64,000 nucleotides of DNA from Capsulimonadaceae bacterium (GTDB lineage: Bacteria; Armatimonadota; Armatimonadia; Armatimonadales; Capsulimonadaceae), in contig OZ244065.1 in NCBI GenBank assembly GCA_965215505.1, forward strand, positions 4,928,001-4,992,000, in the 5' to 3' direction. This document shows, piece by piece, positions 35,897 through 53,531 of this stretch. The notes below the pieces were generated by a model that saw only the letters and a program-made list of their open reading frames with translations, searched no databases and was not told the origin of the DNA. Both the position numbers and the translations under genes were made by a program. The first letter of the stretch is position 1. Each line of letters begins with the position of its first letter.

Positions 35897-38587
35897 TCAC
35901 CGCGCCCCCGCCTTGGTCTCCCGCGCCGCCGCGTCAACAAGCCCCGCCAGCGGATGCTCGCCGCGCGTGGCCTCCGCGTCCGCGAAGTCCAGGACGAAGC
36001 CGCCCCAGGCGCTTTTGCCGCCCGCCATCTTCCCCGCGAGGTCCGTTTGGAGTGCGCGGGCCAGAGCGTCGGTGTCGGCGGAGTTGCTGACGCGCTCGCG
36101 CAGCAGAGCGGCCTTGCCCTGCTTCTGCGCTCCAACGGCGATCCGTTCGGGCTTCGGGTAAAACTCGCCGACGAACAGCGTCCGCAGGGGCGGCGGGAGT
36201 TGCCTCGGGTCGTCCCAGCTTGCCAGCCATTCGGTGCGGACGGCGCTCTGCTCCATCAGAATGGGCCGCGCGGACACGCGCGCCTGACGCATCGCGCCCA
36301 GCAGGGCGGCATTGGCCCCGGCCCGCGCCTTGTCCCACAATGCGGGCAGAGCCTTGTCCGCCGCCGCGTCGTCGAAGGCAGGTAGGCTGACGTCGGCCCT
36401 CAGAGATAACGCTGGCGTGATGTCCAGCGGGTCGGCGTGGGCGAAGCGCAGGAAGGCCAGGCGCATCGCGGGCGTGTAGCCCAAGTCGCTGCCCGCCTCG
36501 GCGTCTTCCCAGACGAACCCGGCCAGGCCGGGCCGGGCGGACAAGCCCTGCACCAGCGCCGTCAGAGTACCGCGCACCGTCTCCGCCGCCGGGCTGACCA
36601 GGACAGGGGGCGGCGCGAACACGACCGGCTTGCCCGCGTCGTCGTACTCCGCCTCCTGCATCCGGTCGCGGGCGTGTACGCCCACTTCCTGACTGTTCTC
36701 TCCCTCGATGGAGAGGTCGCGAGCGGCCTCGGGCGGCGCGTCCCCCCAGGGCAGCAGGCTCAGGTCGGCGTACATGGTGATGCCGGTGCCTGCCGTCTGC
36801 TTCAAGGCTTCCCCCAAGATGTCTGGATCTTTGCCGCCGACGTGCGAGACGCCGCCGGAGAACACGTCCAGCCACAGCTCATTCAGGCCGACCTTCCGCA
36901 TCGCCGCGACTAAGGCGTCCACAGACGCCGCCGTGCGCGGGTGTCCGATTACGGCCCGCCGGAGCCGGGAGCGCAGCAGAGGTATCAGCGCGGGGAGCGG
37001 CACTGACTTTGTCGTCTCCTGTGGGTGGAAGGCTTCGGGGTGACGTTCTGCGGCAATGGCCTCGCCAGGCCAGAACAGCATCCACATCGGCTGCTGAAGG
37101 CCCGACTCTACCAGTGTGTTTATCGTTGGTATCAGCATCTCGACCTTGTATTCCATCCTGAGATCCACCGGCCCGGTCGGGTCCGCCTCCTGGGGATCGC
37201 CTTCCGCAAGATACTGCGGCAAGGTGCTGCTCGCGCTCCGCTCCTCGTAATCGGCGGCGGTCCGGCGAGCCAAGTCCTGCTGTGCCGCCGTCAGCTTCGC
37301 ATAGGGGTAGCGGCCCTCTTCGCCGGGCAGCTCAGGGATCATGATATCTCTCTTCATGGCCGTCATTTGGCTAGGTGTGAGGGCTATAGGATCGCCGAAT
37401 GCCGGCAGGGCGCGCGCCTGATTGATGCGGCGCTTGAGCAGCGCCGCCCCGGCCCGGTCGCCCAGAGCGTGCTGGCCGTCTTGCGCCGCCTCCTCCCACT
37501 CCGCTAGTCGCTGGCGGCGCGCGCCGACGCCAGCCAAGGCGTCCGTCAGGACAAAGGCCGGGCCGACCTGCCGGTAGGTGCCCGCCACGGCGAGGGCCAG
37601 TGCGCCGAGTAGGTCGCCCGCCGGGGCGGACGGCGCGGGGCCGATCACCATCAGCGTCCGTCGCGCGTAGTGCGGGTCGGCGTAGACCTCCTTGTGTGAG
37701 AGTGCCGCAATCCGCTCGGTCATGTCTTCCACCGTCCGCAGGCCCGCCACCGGAACCGCCACCGCAAGCGCCGGGTCATCCAAGTGCAAATCGCCCGGCC
37801 GGGGCGTGTTGATGACGGTGGCCCGCAGGGCGACGTTGTGCTGGGCGGCGGGAGAGTCCAGCTTCGGCGACCAGGTGTGCAGCCGCTTCGCTTCGTCCGC
37901 CGCCTTCACAGAGAAGTAGATGGTCTGCCCCGCACGGTCATGAACATAGAGGTGCGTAGTCTGCCCCAACCGGATGCGGACGCCGTCGATCTGGTCTGAA
38001 ACGTCGCGCGTGTCCGTGCGCTGGTCGTCGGGCAGCTTCGCCATCTCCGGGTCCTGCGAGGCGACCCACAACCGCCCTCGAGGGAACAAGGCGTGGAACA
38101 AGGCCTGCTGCGTCCTGTCCGGCAGGTCTGTCAGGCCCAGGCCGCGCTCCGAGGTTAATGCCGCCCACTGCGAGTCGTCCAGGCTGGCCGCCAGCATTCT
38201 GAAAGCCGGACGGGGGCTGAGATCTGCCGTCACGTCCGGCGGCGCGGGGTCCTCGTTCAGCACGACGCGCGTTGCCGGGGCGACGGCGGTAACAGTCCCG
38301 AACGGTTGCGCCTGTTCGCCGAACGCCGCCGCGACAGTGCCGAGGTCTACGCCGCCCGTCGGCGGTGCTTCTGCCCCGGCGGACAGCTTCACCTTGTCTG
38401 CCCCGACCGCCAGCAGGACGCCTTGCGTCGGCGGCGGCATGGACGCCAGCGCCCCGGCCAGCGTCAGGCCGGGCGGCGTGGGCGGCTTCGTCTGCGCCCC
38501 GGCAGGCCCCAGCAGCAGCAAGGACGGCAGGAGTGCCAGGAACGCGCGGGAGCCGCCTCGCCCGCTTGCATGGCCTTTGCTCCGCAT
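35897..38587 (-). CDS. Large secreted hypothetical protein (paralog of 43291-45918)
   Basis: Signal peptide ending AGA-Q; extensive collinear similarity to 43291-45918; possible C-terminal GHL10-like barrel. Confidence 0.8.
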   Translation of the reverse strand: MRSKGHASGRGGSRAFLALLPSLLLLGPAGAQTKPPTPPGLTLAGALASMPPPTQGVLLAVGADKVKLSAGAEAPPTGGVDLGTVAAAFGEQAQPFGTVTAVAPATRVVLNEDPAPPDVTADLSPRPAFRMLAASLDDSQWAALTSERGLGLTDLPDRTQQALFHALFPRGRLWVASQDPEMAKLPDDQRTDTRDVSDQIDGVRIRLGQTTHLYVHDRAGQTIYFSVKAADEAKRLHTWSPKLDSPAAQHNVALRATVINTPRPGDLHLDDPALAVAVPVAGLRTVEDMTERIAALSHKEVYADPHYARRTLMVIGPAPSAPAGDLLGALALAVAGTYRQVGPAFVLTDALAGVGARRQRLAEWEEAAQDGQHALGDRAGAALLKRRINQARALPAFGDPIALTPSQMTAMKRDIMIPELPGEEGRYPYAKLTAAQQDLARRTAADYEERSASSTLPQYLAEGDPQEADPTGPVDLRMEYKVEMLIPTINTLVESGLQQPMWMLFWPGEAIAAERHPEAFHPQETTKSVPLPALIPLLRSRLRRAVIGHPRTAASVDALVAAMRKVGLNELWLDVFSGGVSHVGGKDPDILGEALKQTAGTGITMYADLSLLPWGDAPPEAARDLSIEGENSQEVGVHARDRMQEAEYDDAGKPVVFAPPPVLVSPAAETVRGTLTALVQGLSARPGLAGFVWEDAEAGSDLGYTPAMRLAFLRFAHADPLDITPALSLRADVSLPAFDDAAADKALPALWDKARAGANAALLGAMRQARVSARPILMEQSAVRTEWLASWDDPRQLPPPLRTLFVGEFYPKPERIAVGAQKQGKAALLRERVSNSADTDALARALQTDLAGKMAGGKSAWGGFVLDFADAEATRGEHPLAGLVDAAARETKAGAR

Positions 38588-38729
38588 GAAGATAGTGTAT
38601 AGCATATCCCTAATAACGGGCGGCGCACGAGAACGGTTCGCGGCTGACGTTGACAGCGGGCGGCGCGATTCGGGTACACTGAAACGCCTGACAACCAGCC
38701 AATAAGAGCGATATAAGAGAGATCAAGCC

Positions 38730-43290: not shown

Positions 43291-45918
43291 ATGATACAGC
43301 ATCCCAAGCGTGTGAAGCGTGTCGCCTATTGCCTTGCTGGTGTTGTCCTCTTCTTCTGCCTCTCGCCGTCCGTGCAGGCACAAGCCGCCGCGCCGCCTAT
43401 GGGAAACACGGCTCAGGCCGCGCGGCCTGCGTACCCCCTTGCCGATGCCCTCCGCACGGCAAAACAGCCGCCCGGAAGTCTCGCGCTGGCCGTCGGCGCA
43501 CAGTCCGTCACCCTGCCGCCGGCGGCCGTCCTGGGAGCCGGGGCCACAGTGGCGGAGACTGCCGCCGCCTTCGGCCAGATCACTCAGACCTTCGGGGCTG
43601 TCGCCGCCGTCGCCCCGCCCACCGCGACCGTCCTCAACACGAAACCTGCCTTTTCCAACCTGTATGACGGGCTGGCCCCCGAGGAAGCCCTGAAGCTGCT
43701 GGCGGTGAACCTCGACGACGCCCAGTGGCAAAGCCTCGTGAGTGCCCAGGGCCTCGGCCTCGGCGACCTCTCCAATGAGGCCCAGCGCGCCCTCTTCCTG
43801 GACCTCCTGCCGCCTGAGCCGTTCCAAGTCAAGAGCATCGCGTTTGACCGGGACGAGAACGCCCCACCGCGCGCCGTCACCGGCGGCCGTGCCGATGCCC
43901 GCCTGCGCCTTGGTCAGACCGTGCAGTTCCAGCTCCCCTCGAAAGGCAACGCGGACTTTCGAGGCATCATCGTCCCCACGCCGATCCTGCCGGGGCAGCC
44001 GCCGCAGTATAGTTTCAAGGGGAACGGGGTACGGTGGTCCCCGACGCTGGACGGCATTCCCATTCGCGCCGAAGTGCCGAACGTCCTGAAAAGCGGCCAG
44101 CTCGACTACCGGCAGCCTGCGCTCCAAGTACCGGTCCCCGTGGCCGGGCTGAGGCGTGTCGGCGACTTAGTCGGCCGCGTCGGGGCGCTCGCTCACTTTG
44201 AGCTGTATGCCGACAGGCGGTACGAGGGCAGGCTCCTGACGATCACCGGCCCCGCCCTCAATGCCCCGGCGGCTGATCTGCTGCGCGCCCTCGCACTATG
44301 CCTCACAGGGACATGGCGGCGGGTCGGACAGGCGTATGTCCTGACGGACGATGTTCAAGGGGCGGGGACACGACGGCAGATCCTGGCCGACTTCCACAAA
44401 GGCGTCGAGGCTCAGCGCCGGACGCTTCTGGCCTCCGCCGGAACACGGCTCGCTTCGGCGCACGGCCTGAGTGACCTGAGCGGGTTCGGCGATCCTCTGG
44501 CCCTCAGCCCCTCCGAACGGGAGCAGGCTTCGCACACTCCCTGGGCCGCGCGCTACCATTCCTCCTTGGCGGTCGGCGTTGCGTTCGCCCGGATGACCGC
44601 CCCGCAGCAGGAGGAGGCTCGGCGCATCACCCAGGTGTTCGAGCAGGCGAACCAGGAGAACCCCAACGATGTCGCCTTCCAGTCGGACCTTGCCGGCAGC
44701 ATTCAGCTAATCGCCCGGCCCGTCCTTCAAGTCATGCTGCCCTCCCTCGATGGCCCCGTGACGCTGCCGCTCGACCTGACGGAGCTGCTTGAAGGGATCG
44801 TGCCACCCGTCATCCCCGCGCCCGCAGCGCCCGCCAAACAGGCCGCATTCGCCCTGACCCCCTGGCGGGCAGTGCTGGCCGCGCCCAAGACGACAAAAGA
44901 TGTGGACGCCCTGGTCGCGGCCATGAAGCCCCTGGGCCTGAACCAGCTCTGGCTGGCGACCTCCCCGCCATCAGACGGGCCGGACCTCGTCGCCTACGCC
45001 TTGAAGGCCACCAAGGGCACGGGCATCGGAGTCTTCCCTACGCTGGACCTGCTGACCTGGGAAACGCCCAGGGCCGCCGCTGACGCCGACCTGGACCTCC
45101 TGGACCGGACCTCCGTTCAGGACGGCGGCAAGGCCCGCACCGCCGTCAGCGCGTTCTCGCCGCGCGTCGCCTCCGACCTCGCCGCCTCGGTCCGCGCCAT
45201 GTCGGCGGAACCCGGCATCGCCGGGCTGGTCTGGCGCGAAACCGCACCCCCCGGCTACGCCCTGCCCGCCCACAGCCTGCTGCCCGACTATGACGCCCCT
45301 CCCGACCTCGGCTACACGGAACCCGCCCGCCTGGCCTTCCTGCGGCTCACCCACACTGACCCCCTGGACATCACGGACACGGACCGCCTCAACCTCGCCG
45401 AGACTGAAGACACGCGCCTGCCCGGCTTTGACGGGACGGGGGAGGACTCGGCCCTGGCGACCCAGTGGCGTCAGTTCCGGTCGGACGCCGACACGGCCCT
45501 GCTGCGCGGCCTCTACAACGTCGCAGGCACGACATCCGGCGCGGCCCGCCCGCGCATCTTCATCCACCAGCAGCGCCCCGGCCCGTCCGGGGTTGACTGG
45601 TACGGCTCCTGGGACGACCCGAAGGCCCCACTCCCGACGGCCCGCAAGTCCTGGGACGACCTCCTTCCGGGCCAGACACCCGCCCCGCCACAGGACGCCT
45701 TGACGCAGGCCCGGCGGCAGTCGCAGCTCGTCTACCTCAGCGTCCCCCTCGGCGACGCCGTGGCCGCCTCCGAGATCGCCGCCCATCTCCCAATGCCGGT
45801 GCCGGGCAAGGCATGGGACGGCGTCGTCTTCGACCTGACCGCCGCCGCGTCCGGCGTGGAACACCTGGACACGCTCAAGGCCCTCGTCGGCGTGAGCGCG
45901 GCAGATGGGAAGAAGTAA
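43291..45918 (+). CDS. Large secreted hypothetical protein (paralog of 35897-38587)
   Basis: Signal peptide ending VQA-Q; shared motifs LDD.QW..L.S..GLGL.DL, DLGYT...RLAFLR..H.DPLDIT, SWDDP. Confidence 0.8.
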   Translation: MIQHPKRVKRVAYCLAGVVLFFCLSPSVQAQAAAPPMGNTAQAARPAYPLADALRTAKQPPGSLALAVGAQSVTLPPAAVLGAGATVAETAAAFGQITQTFGAVAAVAPPTATVLNTKPAFSNLYDGLAPEEALKLLAVNLDDAQWQSLVSAQGLGLGDLSNEAQRALFLDLLPPEPFQVKSIAFDRDENAPPRAVTGGRADARLRLGQTVQFQLPSKGNADFRGIIVPTPILPGQPPQYSFKGNGVRWSPTLDGIPIRAEVPNVLKSGQLDYRQPALQVPVPVAGLRRVGDLVGRVGALAHFELYADRRYEGRLLTITGPALNAPAADLLRALALCLTGTWRRVGQAYVLTDDVQGAGTRRQILADFHKGVEAQRRTLLASAGTRLASAHGLSDLSGFGDPLALSPSEREQASHTPWAARYHSSLAVGVAFARMTAPQQEEARRITQVFEQANQENPNDVAFQSDLAGSIQLIARPVLQVMLPSLDGPVTLPLDLTELLEGIVPPVIPAPAAPAKQAAFALTPWRAVLAAPKTTKDVDALVAAMKPLGLNQLWLATSPPSDGPDLVAYALKATKGTGIGVFPTLDLLTWETPRAAADADLDLLDRTSVQDGGKARTAVSAFSPRVASDLAASVRAMSAEPGIAGLVWRETAPPGYALPAHSLLPDYDAPPDLGYTEPARLAFLRLTHTDPLDITDTDRLNLAETEDTRLPGFDGTGEDSALATQWRQFRSDADTALLRGLYNVAGTTSGAARPRIFIHQQRPGPSGVDWYGSWDDPKAPLPTARKSWDDLLPGQTPAPPQDALTQARRQSQLVYLSVPLGDAVAASEIAAHLPMPVPGKAWDGVVFDLTAAASGVEHLDTLKALVGVSAADGKK

Positions 45919-46260: not shown

Positions 46261-46683
46261 ATGAATCTACGCCCGATTAAAACCGAAGACGACTACAGGG
46301 CGGCACTCGCAGAGATCGAAGGCATATTTCAGGCCGGGCCGGAGACGCCCGAGGGCGACCGCCTAGATATTCTGACCCTGCTGGTGGAAGCCTACGAGGA
46401 GCAGCACTACCCGATACCGCCGCCGGACCCTCTGGGCGCTCTGGAATATCATCTGGAGAGTAGGGGCCTGACGCGGCGCGATCTTGAGCCGTACCTGGGC
46501 AGTCGGGCGCGCGTCGCCGAAGTGATGAACCGCAGGCGTGCATTGACTATAGACATGATTCGGCGGCTGCATCAAGGCTTGGGCATTTCCGCCGAGATTT
46601 TGATCCAGCCCTATCCACTCGTTAAGCCGCCGAGCAGAACGCGGCGAACGGCGGCGACAGCCGCCGCGCCAGTGGCAGGATGA
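46261..46683 (+). CDS. HigA-like HTH antitoxin / transcriptional regulator (orphan)
   Basis: IKTEDDY..AL.EI, LVEAYE..HYPI..PDP, XRE HTH RARVAEVMNRRRALT..MIRRLH. Confidence 0.9.
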   Translation: MNLRPIKTEDDYRAALAEIEGIFQAGPETPEGDRLDILTLLVEAYEEQHYPIPPPDPLGALEYHLESRGLTRRDLEPYLGSRARVAEVMNRRRALTIDMIRRLHQGLGISAEILIQPYPLVKPPSRTRRTAATAAAPVAG

Positions 46684-46766
46684 GAAACGGAACGAAAGAG
46701 CAAAGCGGCCCGGTGCAGATGCACCGGGCCGCTTCCATGTCTCCGACTACTTCCTCGCGTCGCCGA

Positions 46767-48677
46767 CTACTTCCTGACGATGTACTCGGTCTTGCTCTTG
46801 TCGAAGCCCTCCGGCTCCTTCTTGGCGTCGAAGGTCCAGCGTCCCGCGCGGGGATGGAAGGCCGAGTAACCGCTCAGGACGCTCGCCAGCAGGCGGCGCG
46901 GGGTGCGGCGGACAAAGTTCACCTCGGTCAAGAGGGTCAGGAACGAGGTGCCCTTGCGGTAGTGGTCCAGGATGCGCCGGACGATGTCGTAGGTGGAAAT
47001 CGCGGCCCCCCCTTCGACCTCATTACGGAACTCCAGCAGTTCCTCCATGCGCGGCGGCGTGACGAAGACACCGGGGTCGCTCTCGTTCTGGTCCACGAAC
47101 TTGAACTCGTCGGGCTTGTCCGTCTTCTCCAAATAGACGACCGCGCCGGACTCGGCGGCGATCTCCGCGTACAGGTCGAACAGGCCGTAGGCGAGCTGGA
47201 CATTGTGATCCACATAGACCGGGTAGCCGGTCCCCTCCGCGTCCCGCACCGTCAGCTCGACGATGTTCGGCTCGGCGGGGAAGAAGCCGGGCGGGACCTG
47301 TGCCAAGGGGAACGTTCCGATCTCCTTGTGGTAGGCCTTCAGGACAAGGCGCAGGCGCGAGGCCTCGGCCGTCGCCCCTTCCGGCCAGCGGGTCGCGCCG
47401 GCGGGTTCCTGGTCGTTGACGTCCTGGGCGACCGGGTCCAGGATTTCGTCCTGCAAGCCGTCTTCAAAGCCCTCGTCGGCCAGCATCTGGTCCAGGATCT
47501 CGCCGTCCGCCGTCTCGAAACGCGGCAGGGTGGGGAAGGTCAGGGACTCGGGCACCTGCCCGATATACAGCGGCAGCGAGTCGGGCGCGCGGAACCGGTC
47601 CGCACCGACCCACAGATACTGATCGGGGCGGGCGCGCAAATACTCGGCCAATGTCTCCGCGTCGGCGGCGAAGGTACGCGAGCCGGGCCGAATCTCGAAG
47701 ACGTGCGTGAGCAGATCGCCCACGGGGACCGTCTCTTCGCGGCCCTCGAAGTAGGAGGCAAGCTCCTCCGCGTCCTCCTCGGTGACCTCCAGCGGCTTCG
47801 CGGCGGCCTCGACGATAGGGGCGGTCTCGATGGTCGGCTCTTCCACGGGGTTCTCTGCGGCCGAGGCCGCCTGCGCCCGCCACACGGCCCGCAGAGGCTC
47901 CAAAGCCTCGCGCAGCAGCCAGCGGTGATCGGGCAGGGCCAGGAAGGTTTCCCGGTCGGTCGCCACGGCGTCATAGAGAGCCACGCCGTCGAAGTCCTCG
48001 CCCAGAGCCTTCCAGGCGAAGTACTGGATGACCCGGTTGTCCACCGGCTGGCCCTGGCTCACCGTGAGCAGGGCGAGAGTCGCTCCGGTGGGATTGTCCG
48101 CCCAGTCCAGGCCCTTGGCAGCGTTCTGGAATGGGGCCAACTTCTCCGCGCTGAGGTAGTTGTAGAACAGCAGGTCCGCTTCGCGCTCCGAGGTCATATC
48201 GAGCAGCCACGACCGCAGGCCGTAGGACAGGCCGCCCGCAATGGGGAAGAACGGGGTGCCACGAAGCAGGCGCGGGGCGACCTCGGCGTAATACTCCTTG
48301 ACGCGGCCGGTGATCTGGGCAAGTTCCCCCGCCACCTCATTGATCGGGATGGGCGCCCCATACTGGGAAATCACTTCGCTCAGGATGTGTTCCAGGGGCC
48401 GGGTCTTGTCCAGGTAGCGGCTCCTGACATCCCAGCGTCGGTCTACGGCGACGAAGCGGCGCGGGTCGGCCTCCATGCGCTGCCGGGCCAGGGCGGGCGT
48501 CACGACATCGTCGCCGACCTCGCGGGCGACTTCGCCGACGCGGGCCGGCTCGCCCAGGCGGACCAGGGCGCGGTGCAGCAGGGTCGTCAAAGTCTCCTGC
48601 GCGAGCGCCTGCGTCGGGTCCGGGCCGGGGGCGGGTTTCTTGGCGGTGGTTTTCTTGTCGGTTCGGGTGGTCGCCAT
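46767..48677 (-). CDS. Hypothetical acidic protein with repeated winged-helix (RNAP-delta/HARE-HTH-like) motifs
   Basis: AAGGAG RBS, strong codon bias; five F-x(4-6)-[WYF]-x-hydrophobic wing motifs. Confidence 0.8.
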   Translation of the reverse strand: MATTRTDKKTTAKKPAPGPDPTQALAQETLTTLLHRALVRLGEPARVGEVAREVGDDVVTPALARQRMEADPRRFVAVDRRWDVRSRYLDKTRPLEHILSEVISQYGAPIPINEVAGELAQITGRVKEYYAEVAPRLLRGTPFFPIAGGLSYGLRSWLLDMTSEREADLLFYNYLSAEKLAPFQNAAKGLDWADNPTGATLALLTVSQGQPVDNRVIQYFAWKALGEDFDGVALYDAVATDRETFLALPDHRWLLREALEPLRAVWRAQAASAAENPVEEPTIETAPIVEAAAKPLEVTEEDAEELASYFEGREETVPVGDLLTHVFEIRPGSRTFAADAETLAEYLRARPDQYLWVGADRFRAPDSLPLYIGQVPESLTFPTLPRFETADGEILDQMLADEGFEDGLQDEILDPVAQDVNDQEPAGATRWPEGATAEASRLRLVLKAYHKEIGTFPLAQVPPGFFPAEPNIVELTVRDAEGTGYPVYVDHNVQLAYGLFDLYAEIAAESGAVVYLEKTDKPDEFKFVDQNESDPGVFVTPPRMEELLEFRNEVEGGAAISTYDIVRRILDHYRKGTSFLTLLTEVNFVRRTPRRLLASVLSGYSAFHPRAGRWTFDAKKEPEGFDKSKTEYIVRK

Positions 48678-48730
48678 GCGGTCTCCTTCTGGATACGGAA
48701 ATGGAAAATGAGGGAAAAGTCTTGCGGCGG

Positions 48731-50074
48731 CTAGGCGGGGACGGCGTACAGGTCGTAAGGCTCGGCCTCCACGACGCGGGCGGCGACGAGCGTGCCCGGC
48801 GCGGCCTCGCAGCCGCGCACGACCACCGCGCCGTCTATCTCGGGGGCGTCGCGGAAGGAGCGGCCCACGGCGTCCGTCCGCCCTTCCTCGGCGCGCTGTG
48901 ATTCAACCAGCACGTCCAGGGTTCGCCCCAGCCACTTCTGGTTGTTCGCTAAACTGAGGGGCTGCTGCGCGGCCATCAGGGCATCCCGGCGGGCGCGCAT
49001 CACCTTCGGCGGGACGGCACCGGGCAGATCAAAGGCGGGCGTGTCCTCCTCGGCGGAGTAGGTGAAGACGCCCACGCGGTCAAAGCGCATCTCTTGAACA
49101 AAGCCGAGCAGGTTCTCAAACTGCGCGTCCGTCTCGCCGGGGAAGCCGACCAGGAACGTCGTCCGCAGGGCAAGGTCGGGCAGGGCCTGCCGCATCTTGC
49201 CGAAGAGCCGCTTGTACTGCTCGACCGACCCGCCGCGCTTCATGGCTTTGAGCATGACATCGTCGCCGTGCTGCAAGGGCATGTCAATGTAGGGGATCAC
49301 CTGCGGCAGATCGCGCAGGGCGTCAATCAAGGGCTGGCGGACCATCGTCGGGTAGCAGTAGAGCAGCCGCAGCCACTTGATGCCCTCCACCTCGGCCAGC
49401 GCCCGCAGCAGCTCGGGCAAGGCCAGCCGGCCGTACAGGTCCATCCCATAGGCGGTGGTGTCCTGCGCGACCAGGTTGAGTTCCGATGCGCCCGAGGCCG
49501 CGAGCTGCCGCGCCTCCTGCACCAGCCTTTCGATGGGCTTGGACCGGTGCTTGCCCCGGATGCCGGGGATCGCGCAGAACGTGCAGGTGTGGTCGCAGCC
49601 CTCGGAGATCTTGAGGTAGGCCGTCCACGGCGTCGCGGTCGCGCGCAGTCGGGTCTGGGGAATAAGAGGATACTTGTCGGCGACCTGCTCCACCAGGTTG
49701 ATCTGGCGGGGTCGCGCCCCGAAGACGACATTGCCGATAGCGGGCGCGCTCTCGATCCCCAGGAACGCATCCACTTCGGGAATCTCGCGGGCAAGGTCCG
49801 CCCCGTAGCGTTGGGCGAGGCAGCCGGTGACGATCACCTTGGACACCTGCCCGCGCCCCTTGCGCTTCACGGCGTCCAGGATGGCCGCGATGCTTTCTTC
49901 CTTCGCCGGCCCGATGAACCCGCAGGTGTTGACGATCAGCACGTCCGCGTCGTTCTTGTCCGCGACGAACTGCACCGCGCGTCCGTCCGCGCCCGCGAGC
50001 GCGCCCAGCATCTCCTCGCCGTCCACCTGGTTTTTCGCGCAGCCAAGCTGCACCAGACCTACTTTGGTCGCCAA
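48731..50074 (-). CDS. rimO: Ribosomal protein S12 methylthiotransferase RimO
   Basis: LGCAKNQVD, NTCGFI, GCLAQRY, CDHTCTFCAIP radical-SAM motif, TRAM domain APEIDG; probable TTG start. Confidence 0.95.
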   Translation of the reverse strand: MATKVGLVQLGCAKNQVDGEEMLGALAGADGRAVQFVADKNDADVLIVNTCGFIGPAKEESIAAILDAVKRKGRGQVSKVIVTGCLAQRYGADLAREIPEVDAFLGIESAPAIGNVVFGARPRQINLVEQVADKYPLIPQTRLRATATPWTAYLKISEGCDHTCTFCAIPGIRGKHRSKPIERLVQEARQLAASGASELNLVAQDTTAYGMDLYGRLALPELLRALAEVEGIKWLRLLYCYPTMVRQPLIDALRDLPQVIPYIDMPLQHGDDVMLKAMKRGGSVEQYKRLFGKMRQALPDLALRTTFLVGFPGETDAQFENLLGFVQEMRFDRVGVFTYSAEEDTPAFDLPGAVPPKVMRARRDALMAAQQPLSLANNQKWLGRTLDVLVESQRAEEGRTDAVGRSFRDAPEIDGAVVVRGCEAAPGTLVAARVVEAEPYDLYAVPA

Positions 50075-50209
50075 ATTCCCAACTTCCTCTGCACCAAACA
50101 ACGTAAAAGCACAAAAATTGCCGGTTTAGTGTACCCGAGAAAGGAGGAAATAGTCAATCGGCTGGGTGTGAACTGTCAGGCAATCGCCCAGGACGGGCAG
50201 GCACGGGGA

Positions 50210-51382: not shown

Positions 51383-51757
51383 TCAGGACAGGGCGAGAGA
51401 AGCCTTTATCGGCCCTTGCCGCACGGGTGTCAGCTCCCCCGCCTCCATAGCCTCGACGATGACGCCTTCTTCCGGCAGGATCACCACGCGCGCGTTGAGC
51501 GCCTGCGCGATGCGGCGCAGGGTGGGGAGGGTCGGCATCTGGCCGCGCTCGATGCGGGCGAGCATCGGTTGCTTGATGCCGGTCTTCTCGGACAACTCCC
51601 GCTGAGTCAGGTTGCGGGCCTCGCGCGTCTCGGTCAGCGCCAGACCCAGGCGCGTGCCCTCGCGTGCATGAGTCAGTTCTTCGGCGAACGTAGGACTAGC
51701 CGCGATCTGTTCGGCGACGTATTGCTGGAGTGACTTGTACGGATCTTGGGTCTGCAT
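51383..51757 (-). CDS. XRE-family HTH antitoxin
   Basis: REARNLTQRELSEKTGIKQPMLARIERG HTH, downstream of toxin. Confidence 0.85.
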   Translation of the reverse strand: MQTQDPYKSLQQYVAEQIAASPTFAEELTHAREGTRLGLALTETREARNLTQRELSEKTGIKQPMLARIERGQMPTLPTLRRIAQALNARVVILPEEGVIVEAMEAGELTPVRQGPIKASLALS

Positions 51758-52139
51758 GGTCTTTCTCTGCTTTCTCAACTGCCTCCCGCCGCTCTGCTTC
51801 TCGGCGGCGTACCTCCTCAACGCGGCTCAGAGCCAGTCGCGTATCACCCGGCTTGAGCCGCTGTGACTTCTTGCTGATGGCATGAACGATGACGATCTGT
51901 TCCTCAACATAGGTAAAGTAGAAGTAGCGGTACTCGATGCCGCCAAACTCAGGCCTCAGTTCCCACAAGTCGTCCTGAACCTTGCTGGCGTAGTTGCTAG
52001 GCAAACGGTTGCCCCGTTCTTCCAAAAGAAGCATGTAGTCAACGCACTTCGCCCGTGCCTTCTCCGAGAGGGACGCCAGGAACTCACCTACGGGGCTGTC
52101 GCCTCGCTCCGACTGGTAGAAGACGACCTCCCATGGCAT
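51696..52139 (-). CDS. RelE/HigB (Gp49-like) toxin
   Basis: WEVVFY..G.SPV.EFL, LWELR, YR.FY, HAI.KK motifs. Confidence 0.85.
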   Translation of the reverse strand: MPWEVVFYQSERGDSPVGEFLASLSEKARAKCVDYMLLLEERGNRLPSNYASKVQDDLWELRPEFGGIEYRYFYFTYVEEQIVIVHAISKKSQRLKPGDTRLALSRVEEVRRREAERREAVEKAEKDHADPRSVQVTPAIRRRTDRG

Positions 52140-52215: not shown

Positions 52216-53531
52216 GATAGTGTCAAGTTGTTTCTGTAAAAGCTGGGAGCATCCTTGCGTGTCTACGGGTTCGTGATGGCCTGTTCCGCGAAGGTCAGGT
52301 AGGCTTTGTCCGCCTGCCAGTCGTCGCTGATCTCCATCAGTACCGCGCTCGCCAGCCGCAGGCACGACGCCTCGTTCGGGAAGATGCTTGCCACCCGCGT
52401 CCTGCGGCGCACTTCTCGGTTGACCCGCTCGACGCCGTTAGTCGTCCGTAGCAGGCGACGATGCGGCTCAGGGAACGCGAACACCGTCAAGCCTTCGGGC
52501 AGGTTCTCTTCCAGCCAGGCCGAGAGTCTGGGTGCCGCCGCTTCGTACTTCTGGATGGCCCGCTTCAGTAGCGCGTCGGCTTCGGCTCTGTCCTGGGCGC
52601 TGAAGACGGCCCTGATGTCTGCCGCGGCCTGTGCCTTGGCGTCCTGACGTGGCACATAGGCCGAGGCGTTCTGCTGAAGATGGAACTGGCAGCGCTGCCA
52701 CGGGATGCCGCCGAACACGGCCAGCCGCGCCGCCTTCAGCCCCTCGTGGGCGTCGCTGACGATCAGGCGCACGCCCCGCAAGCCGCGCTGGACGAGGCTT
52801 TGCAGGAACGAGCGCCAATGCACTTCTTTCTCGGACAGGGCGACGGAGACGCCCAGCACCTGCCGCTTGCCCTGCGCGTCCACGCCCACGGCGATCAGCA
52901 CGGCGGCATCCTGCACCAGTCCGCCCTGGCGCACCTTCTCGTAGCGGGCGTCCAGCAGCAGGTACGGACATCCGCCCAGTGGGCGCTGCCGCCAGGCTTC
53001 CAGAGTGGCGTCGAGTTCTTTGGCGGCCTGGCTGACCTGGCCGCTGCTGACCGAGAAGCCGCACAACTGCTCGGTGATGGCGGCCACCTTGCGGGTGGAG
53101 ACGCCCTGCATGTACATCTCGGCCAAGGCCAGCTTCAGGGCGCGCTCGGAGCGGGTGCCCCGTTCCAGGCTCTGCGGATAGAAGCCGCCCTCTCGCACCT
53201 GGGGGACGGCGACGGTGATCTGTCCCAGGCGGGTGTTGAGTGTCTTATCTTTGTAGCCGTTGGCGTGGCCCGTGCGCTGCTCGGTGCGCTCGTGCAAAGC
53301 CGCACCGAGGTGGTTCTGACGCTCGATCTGCATGGCGGCGTTGAGCAGGACGCGGAACAGATCGGGCAAAGCGTCAAGCCCGTGCGCGGCAAGCTGCTCC
53401 AAAAGAGGCGCTGGTAGTGTAGAATCTTCGTGGTAGGTCATGGGTAGTTTCCTTGTGGTGTGGTAACTCCAAGGATACTCCCTGACCTACTATTTCAGGC
53501 CATCAATTTACAGAAAACATTTTACACTAAC
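52216..53531 (-). mobile_element. IS256-family insertion sequence
   Basis: 25-bp imperfect IRs GATAGTGTCAAGTTGTTTCTGTAAA / TTTACAGAAAACATTTTACACTAAC; no target duplication seen. Confidence 0.9.
52263..53441 (-). CDS. IS256 (Mutator-like) transposase
   Basis: GVSTRKV, LDA..EK, SDAH.GL, QRCQFH, TTN..ER.N.E.RRR motifs. Confidence 0.95.
   Translation of the reverse strand: MTYHEDSTLPAPLLEQLAAHGLDALPDLFRVLLNAAMQIERQNHLGAALHERTEQRTGHANGYKDKTLNTRLGQITVAVPQVREGGFYPQSLERGTRSERALKLALAEMYMQGVSTRKVAAITEQLCGFSVSSGQVSQAAKELDATLEAWRQRPLGGCPYLLLDARYEKVRQGGLVQDAAVLIAVGVDAQGKRQVLGVSVALSEKEVHWRSFLQSLVQRGLRGVRLIVSDAHEGLKAARLAVFGGIPWQRCQFHLQQNASAYVPRQDAKAQAAADIRAVFSAQDRAEADALLKRAIQKYEAAAPRLSAWLEENLPEGLTVFAFPEPHRRLLRTTNGVERVNREVRRRTRVASIFPNEASCLRLASAVLMEISDDWQADKAYLTFAEQAITNP

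Follow-up and report, generated by a model that had tools for sequence, protein, structure and literature searches.

A single-copy protein of most Armatimonadota that combines delta-like winged-helix repeats with a predicted B3-type barrel

Most Armatimonadota genomes encode a single copy of a large protein that combines winged-helix repeats related to the RNA polymerase delta subunit with a predicted B3-type barrel. It is represented here by a 636-aa protein encoded in the window, a stretch of 64,000 nucleotides from a Capsulimonadaceae bacterium (GenBank assembly GCA_965215505.1, contig OZ244065.1, positions 4,928,001 to 4,992,000). The architecture of this protein, its homology to delta, its B3 fold, its charge pattern, and its distribution were established computationally. 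We tentatively regard it, at somewhat below an even chance, as a phylum-wide single-copy transcription factor that is docked on RNA polymerase and carries a nucleic-acid-binding head. The domain types are known, and what seems new is their combination and the status of a core gene: a literature search found no description of the protein family, its domain combination, or its core status, and no HARE-HTH fusion to a B3 barrel in print, although the original HARE-HTH survey, which lay outside that search, may list such architectures.

Gene, repeats, and C-terminal unit

The open reading frame (ORF) at 46767-48677 on the minus strand is a real gene, and all five wing motifs and the beta-rich stretch quoted in the original prediction are located in its translation. 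The features of the locus are as follows (amino acid positions refer to the 636-aa protein; P values are from hhalign).

46767..48677, minus strand: the 636-aa gene, with four N-terminal winged-helix repeats, an acidic linker, a B3 barrel, a fifth winged helix, and a basic tail
48414..48608, minus strand: repeat R1, aa 24-88, HARE-HTH-like, wing poorly modeled (P 92 with R2, 57 with delta)
48192..48410, minus strand: repeat R2, aa 90-162, similar in sequence to Bacillus subtilis delta's N-terminal domain (P 74.8 with delta)
47898..48104, minus strand: repeat R3, aa 192-260, winged helix (P 88 with R2, 90 with R4)
47802..47849, minus strand: flexible linker, aa 277-292 (pLDDT under 50)
47574..47789, minus strand: repeat R4, aa 297-368, acidic (median charge in the family, -6) and closest of the five to delta (P 97.2 and E 4e-11)
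47382..47573, minus strand: acidic linker at about aa 369-432, conserved (median net charge in the family, -13) and, by prediction, ordered and packed on the C-terminal unit
47079..47366, minus strand: B3/EcoRII-N pseudobarrel, aa 438-533, from predicted fold and conservation
46818..47006, minus strand: repeat R5, aa 558-620, basic winged helix, from family charge, model, and fold matches
46770..46817, minus strand: basic C-terminal tail (family median charge, +6 over aa 618-636; +2 in the window protein)
48731..50101, minus strand: rimO, upstream of and co-oriented with the 636-aa gene (TIGR01125, 476.8 bits; cut-off, 357)
46702..46735, minus strand: intrinsic-terminator-like hairpin with a 15-pair stem, 31 nt past the stop codon of the 636-aa gene (consensus match only)
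50128..50157, minus strand: site resembling a sigma-70-type promoter, upstream of rimO (judged by consensus only, with 9 of 12 matches)

Profile-profile comparisons based on 128 sequences bear out the similarity of the five repeats, with P values of 92 for R1-R2, 89 for R1-R4, 88 for R2-R3, 94 for R2-R4, 90 for R3-R4, and 79 for R2-R5, against at most 6.2 for reversed controls. The weaker pairs are R1-R3 (14), R1-R5 (28), R4-R5 (11), and R3-R5 (0.4), and the low scores of the last three make R5 the most divergent repeat. In the AlphaFold2 model of the 636-aa protein (pLDDT 86.9, pTM 0.54), the expected winged-helix fold, helices with a two-strand wing, is present in R2, R3, R4, and R5, whereas the wing of R1 is modeled as helical at low confidence. 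R3 matches the fold of a Staphylococcus aureus RNA polymerase chain (8x6g_E; Z 7.1, rmsd 3.6, 76 residues aligned). R5 is the most conserved region of the protein (E585, N587, R590, R591, S599, L601, F607, and W614).

The separately modeled segment aa 372-636 reaches a pLDDT of 96.5 and a pTM of 0.93, with the acidic linker at pLDDT 93-98, so that linker, B3 barrel, and R5 are predicted to fold as a single rigid unit. The acidic linkers noted in the original prediction are present, but the predicted order of the long one had been missed; likewise, the beta-rich insert had been seen correctly but not recognized as a B3/EcoRII-N barrel. The top 13 structural (VIA) matches of the barrel are all of the B3 type, with Z from 10.1 to 5.9 (rmsd of the best, 2.5, with 94 residues aligned), and Foldseek returns B3-type matches as well, at E values no better than 1.3e-3. 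The matches include FUS3 (6j9b), LlaJI.R1 (6c5d), VRN1 (4i1k), BfiI-C (3zi5), and NgoAVII (4rd5); the top nine share one fold with the barrel over 91-96 residues (rmsd 2.5-3.2, Z 10.1-7.2). In contrast to these proteins, with which it has 6-14% identity, the barrel described here is part of a core gene rather than a restriction system, and its DNA binding is only putative. Sequence searches for B3 families gave no Pfam match, and a PDB profile search with the C-terminal unit gave no B3 chain. The barrel residues H450, G454, T455, and G511 are conserved in 94-99% of the 128 sequences.

Family median charges over the same sequences are -29 for the whole protein, -4 for the B3 barrel, +3.5 for R5, and +6 for the tail. 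R1 to R4 are not basic; R2 to R4, the linker, and the barrel are acidic, and the basic R5 and tail are the most conserved parts. The 13 matches among proteins 136-469 aa long resemble fragments of the same family, and none was recognized as a C-terminal unit that stands alone. The B3-R5 unit does occur outside the core gene: it sits, without R4, in a protein of 2282 aa that also has a sacsin domain and TPRs (L317:4561-11406, minus strand), and it is found in a 2175-aa frame (G413:C7:162782-163408).

These features could also be explained by a DNA-binding organizer or global regulator independent of polymerase, in which DNA is read by B3 and R5 and the repeat array serves to oligomerize or to recruit other proteins, with roles in nucleoid shaping, chromosome anchoring, or segregation. 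We consider this, the main rival reading, somewhat unlikely. It is in line with the top fold matches of the barrel, all of which serve to bind DNA in plant transcription factors or restriction enzymes, with the B3-R5 unit of the sacsin-domain protein that lacks R4, with the position of ftsK upstream in 7 of 40 Armatimonadota loci, and with the coiled coil with a hydrophobic end in the Bacillota forms described below. R5, in addition, resembles forkhead and linker-histone winged helices, although its Z of about 5.2-5.5 is in the range of common arrangements. Typical nucleoid proteins are small and basic, in contrast to this strongly acidic protein (median charge, -29) of more than 600 aa, and an organizer would leave unexplained why R4 resembles delta more than it does other HARE-HTH domains.

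Relation to the delta subunit

Assignment of the repeats to the HARE-HTH/delta kind, as originally proposed, is backed by PDB matches to delta, by PF05066 matches in relatives, by hhalign comparison with delta, and by the specificity of R4. The 636-aa protein itself has no Pfam or NCBIfam match at E <= 1. PF05066 (cut-off, 25.9 bits) is detected at E <= 0.05 in 10 of 71 relatives, 2 of which exceed the cut-off, and the matches lie in repeats 1, 2, and 4; among close relatives it appears in 1 of 76, at E 0.26. The five best PDB sequence matches of a diverse family profile are all B. subtilis delta, aligned with R2 (E 2.2e-5 to 2.9e-4). Against four true deltas, hhalign gives P values of 97.2 for R4, 75 for R2, 57 for R1, 53 for R5, and 37 for R3 (reversed controls, <= 3.7). 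With the R4 HMM, the four deltas reach 23.6-36.2 bits and four other HARE-HTH domains 1.3-4.9 bits, the latter being a small control set of three endonuclease-type domains and one sigma-fused domain. The R2 HMM, by comparison, scores the sigma-fused HARE-HTH domain (20.0 bits) above the four deltas (11.4-14.1 bits), and therefore only R4 is clearly delta-specific. No enzyme family, the kind of match that would have contradicted the original reading, is found by Pfam, NCBIfam, or fold comparison. A 568-aa protein on a small contig (G096; L072:6163-7866, minus strand) combines sigma-70 region 4 with HARE-HTH-like repeats and weakly matches R1-R2.

Still, the 636-aa protein does not belong to the delta family, because it falls short of delta in score, architecture, and locus. 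Delta (RpoE; TIGR04567; PDB 2krc, 6zca, and 7f75) shares with it a homologous winged-helix domain, a net acidic charge, and single-copy housekeeping behavior. However, delta consists of one domain and a disordered acidic tail, 173 aa in total, and is encoded at argS-pyrG, whereas the window protein, at 636 aa, comprises five repeats as well as a B3 barrel, is encoded elsewhere, and has a basic tail and an acidic linker that is predicted to be ordered. In its own genome, argS and pyrG each lie more than 1 Mb from the 636-aa gene and from each other. From the HARE-HTH family (PF05066), it differs in having no detected nuclease, glycosylase, or sigma domain.

TIGR04567 (cut-off, 42 bits) has no match in the window genome and reaches at best 30.6 bits across 121 Armatimonadota genomes; the weak delta-HMM matches in this phylum fall within R4 of the 636-aa gene in all three cases mappable by coordinates. 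Conversely, a core profile built across phyla reached small Bacillota ORFs through R4. TIGR04567 identifies the four retrieved ones as true delta, and one of them has the confirmed gene order argS-rpoE-pyrG. Canonical delta above the cut-off is absent from the 121 Armatimonadota genomes and from the 27 Chloroflexota and 15 Bacillota genomes with multi-repeat forms. In Bacillota overall, it is found above the cut-off in 65 of 251 genomes, and in 74 at E <= 1e-6. Fisher's test for delta in carriers (0 of 15) versus other Bacillota (74 of 236) gives a p value of 0.007, which overstates the contrast because the carriers are kin. Besides, 162 of the 251 Bacillota genomes have neither delta nor a multi-repeat form, and most bacteria lack delta anyway. 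Mutual exclusion of the two proteins is therefore weak and no more than hinted at.

Gene neighborhoods and phyletic distribution

A profile of 89 diverse members matches 286 of 301 Armatimonadota genomes, including 228 of the 238 high-quality ones, mostly in one copy, in agreement with the housekeeping behavior originally proposed; the window genome has a single copy. A word-index search returned 139 full-length homologs, of which the named ones are mostly from Armatimonadota, including Capsulimonas, and one is labeled Janthinobacterium. Atlas clusters concur on Armatimonadota, and a profile search over 1.84 billion representatives gave 251 matches at E <= 0.001. No match to the protein or to the sacsin-type module was found in a plasmid search, and the protein has no viral fold match at E <= 0.001. 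The exception within the phylum is one family (f20), in which the full profile finds no gene in 8 of 8 genomes (G027, G080, G113, G122, G185, G219, G227, and G278); looser settings on five of them agree, and the core profile matches none of the 5 genomes tested. The gene is thus dispensable in that family. Canonical delta is likewise absent from 4 of 4 f20 genomes tested, and the HARE-HTH matches there are endonuclease-like 345-aa frames. An 860-aa protein (P0258) combines Bacillota-like ends with an Armatimonadota-like core and, in a fast tree, joins the Armatimonadota sequences by a long branch; no close relative of it was found.

As originally noted, the gene is co-oriented with rimO, whose stop codon is followed by a gap of 53 nt (48678-48730). 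Its codon bias is above average, as the term housekeeping-like implied, but not extreme: among 5474 roughly called ORFs, its CAI of 0.70 ranks at the 83rd percentile, and rpoC at the 96th. The number of terminator-like sites is not by itself above chance, since the region has 2 and shuffled sequences are expected to have 2.5. In the RNA libraries of one study, contigs of relatives (mostly at <90% identity) span rimO and the 636-aa gene, and some bridge both, but they do not establish transcription because the libraries may contain DNA. An HTH_3 antitoxin-like gene (46261-46683, plus strand) converges on the 636-aa gene. Upstream of rimO lie a Gp49-like and HTH_3 pair (51383-52139, minus strand) and a Mutator-family transposase (52263-53441, minus strand). 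Two further ORFs of the window, 43291-45918 (plus strand, 875 aa) and 35897-38605 (minus strand, 902 aa), look similar to each other, have signal-peptide-like starts, and lack Pfam matches.

Neighbors were compared in 40 Armatimonadota loci picked to span families, one off-family locus of 41 being left out. The link to rimO holds in part, with rimO upstream in only 21 of the 40 loci. Downstream, gltX is found in 18 and an amidohydrolase pair follows the gene in 8, and in 7 ftsK is located further upstream. No polymerase gene is among the recurring neighbors in the examined loci. The neighborhood is a housekeeping setting that says little on function. Its translation genes, rimO and gltX, could point to an RNA- or ribosome-associated factor whose tandem winged helices bind structured RNA, as does the C-terminal domain of SelB (1lva and 2pjp), which has a similar tandem arrangement and matches R4 with Z of 6.7-6.8. 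We consider such a role improbable. These Z values are tied with those of many unrelated winged helices, R1 to R4 lack a basic charge, and the genes around the Chloroflexota and Bacillota forms are unrelated to the Armatimonadota neighbors; SelB also differs in giving no sequence match in PDB profile searches and in its GTPase domain, which the window protein lacks.

The same loci bear on a possible origin in restriction or defense systems, as a reader of DNA sequence or modification that works with a nuclease or ATPase encoded elsewhere. One report (PMC11037411) presents HARE-HTH domains as proposed modification readers. B3 barrels serve as recognition domains of restriction enzymes, and the B3-R5 unit is found inside the 2282-aa sacsin-domain protein and the 2175-aa frame. 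However, a gene present in 228 of 238 high-quality genomes, mostly in one copy and in housekeeping contexts, is unlike defense genes; no nuclease or methylase cluster recurs among the neighbors in the 40 Armatimonadota loci, plasmids gave no match, and endonuclease-type HARE-HTH domains score poorly with R4. We therefore consider this origin very improbable.

The original prediction allowed for a lineage-specific component, which does not hold: the core of the protein is shared with Chloroflexota and some Bacillota and is thus not confined to one lineage. An atlas match pointed to Chloroflexota, where proteins of the Anaerolineae type, some 520-580 aa long, give P 99.8 and E 1.9e-29 when aligned with the family; a second Chloroflexota type, of 540-740 aa, includes Herpetosiphon. 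The order R4-linker-B3-R5 is co-linear across the Armatimonadota, Anaerolineae-type, and Herpetosiphon-type proteins, and each lineage form makes up a single branch of a fast tree. The core profile matches 68 of 251 Chloroflexota genomes, from some of which it was itself built. It has no match in two Ktedonobacter and two Dehalococcoidia genomes, where the positive control matched, and none in 71 genomes from the phylum of a record titled Desulfuromonadales, in a search run without a positive control. A record titled Singulisphaera (L146/G310), grouped with Chloroflexota by the genome search, carries the core.

The Anaerolineae-type homologs are followed by a conserved ORF of 140-148 aa in 32 of 36 loci (e.g., L232:2223-2654, plus strand) and in 8 of 8 of another locus set; it has no Pfam or PDB match and is a likely partner protein. 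The Anaerolineae form (L232:634-2223, plus strand) has an extra beta-rich segment at about aa 65-130 in its N-terminal half. This segment resembles a Tudor/SH3 (CarD-like) domain, a reading that found no support from Pfam, PDB sequences, or its own genome. Among 20 Herpetosiphon-type loci fetched (L298-L316 and L326), the homolog comes after a ROK-family gene in 12 and precedes genes for HEAT-repeat (15), PIG-L (13), FemAB (15), and MurE (13) proteins.

In Bacillota, sampled as the phylum of a Pelotomaculum record that was taken as Bacillota, the core profile matches 25 of 251 genomes: 11 with long forms, which have B3 and a C-terminal coiled coil, 4 with shorter multi-repeat forms without B3, and 10 with short, delta-size frames. 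The Bacillota-type proteins (L348-L361 and L366) consist of delta-like repeats with or without B3, then a long coiled coil, and finally a helix that is hydrophobic, a combination that suggests a scaffold.

A possible place in the transcription machinery

From the above we infer that the 636-aa protein may bind polymerase and nucleic acids and affect transcription. As described in PMC7749165, PMC11156646, and bioRxiv 10.1101/2021.06.06.447298, delta places its folded domain between the shelf and the jaw of beta-prime, and the acidic tail of delta, which is disordered, is in competition with nucleic acid. By analogy, docking on the polymerase surface would fall to at least one of the delta-like repeats that are neutral to acidic (most likely R4, then R2), mirroring the delta N-terminal domain on the shelf and jaw. 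The rigid C-terminal unit of B3 barrel, basic R5, and basic tail would contact DNA or RNA, and where the small delta subunit is missing this might tune the choice of promoter, the stability of complexes, or recycling. Displacement of nucleic acid as by delta does not carry over simply, because the acidic linker is predicted to be ordered and the delta tail is disordered.

At the level of sequence comparison, the delta specificity of R4 and the top PDB matches to delta appear to favor this polymerase-docked arrangement, as does the charge pattern, with non-basic R1 to R4 and a conserved basic R5 and tail in an acidic protein (-29). The near-universal single copy (286 of 301) and the one branch per lineage fit a gene of the core machinery, and the absence of canonical delta from the tested carrier genomes counts as a hint. 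Arguing against docking are a locus other than argS-pyrG, the lack of a recurrent polymerase neighbor, the dispensability of the gene in f20, the slightly acidic B3 barrel (median, -4), and the scaffold-like coiled-coil form of Bacillota. A complex prediction for aa 20-372 with the shelf/jaw segment of the organism's own beta-prime (545 aa) scored 0.00 in two runs against a mark of 0.32 and is uninformative either way. The Armatimonadota beta-prime (rpoC; L097, G000) has an insert of roughly 60-70 aa, at about aa 1050-1120 of the L097 frame, in all ten sequences examined; it comes directly after a putative trigger-loop motif.

A broader and rather unlikely scenario is that a large counterpart of delta is a stoichiometric polymerase component of Armatimonadota, Anaerolineae, Chloroflexia-type Chloroflexota, and some Bacillota, with a delta-like repeat that docks and a head of B3 and winged helix that reads DNA. 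The small Firmicute delta and the large protein would then be alternative descendants of an ancient polymerase-docking module, and B3 would have a housekeeping role in transcription. Delta is described as Firmicutes-specific in PMC11156646. Finding a relative of it among the core proteins of two further phyla would enlarge the known repertoire of accessory factors for polymerase. The B3 barrel, which in the fold matches is limited to plant transcription factors and restriction enzymes, would enter a bacterial housekeeping protein. The gene is usable as a single-copy marker for most Armatimonadota. Its role is directly testable because cultured strains, of Capsulimonas, Longilinea, Leptolinea, and Herpetosiphon, carry homologs, and the protein may be an undescribed part of the transcription machinery.
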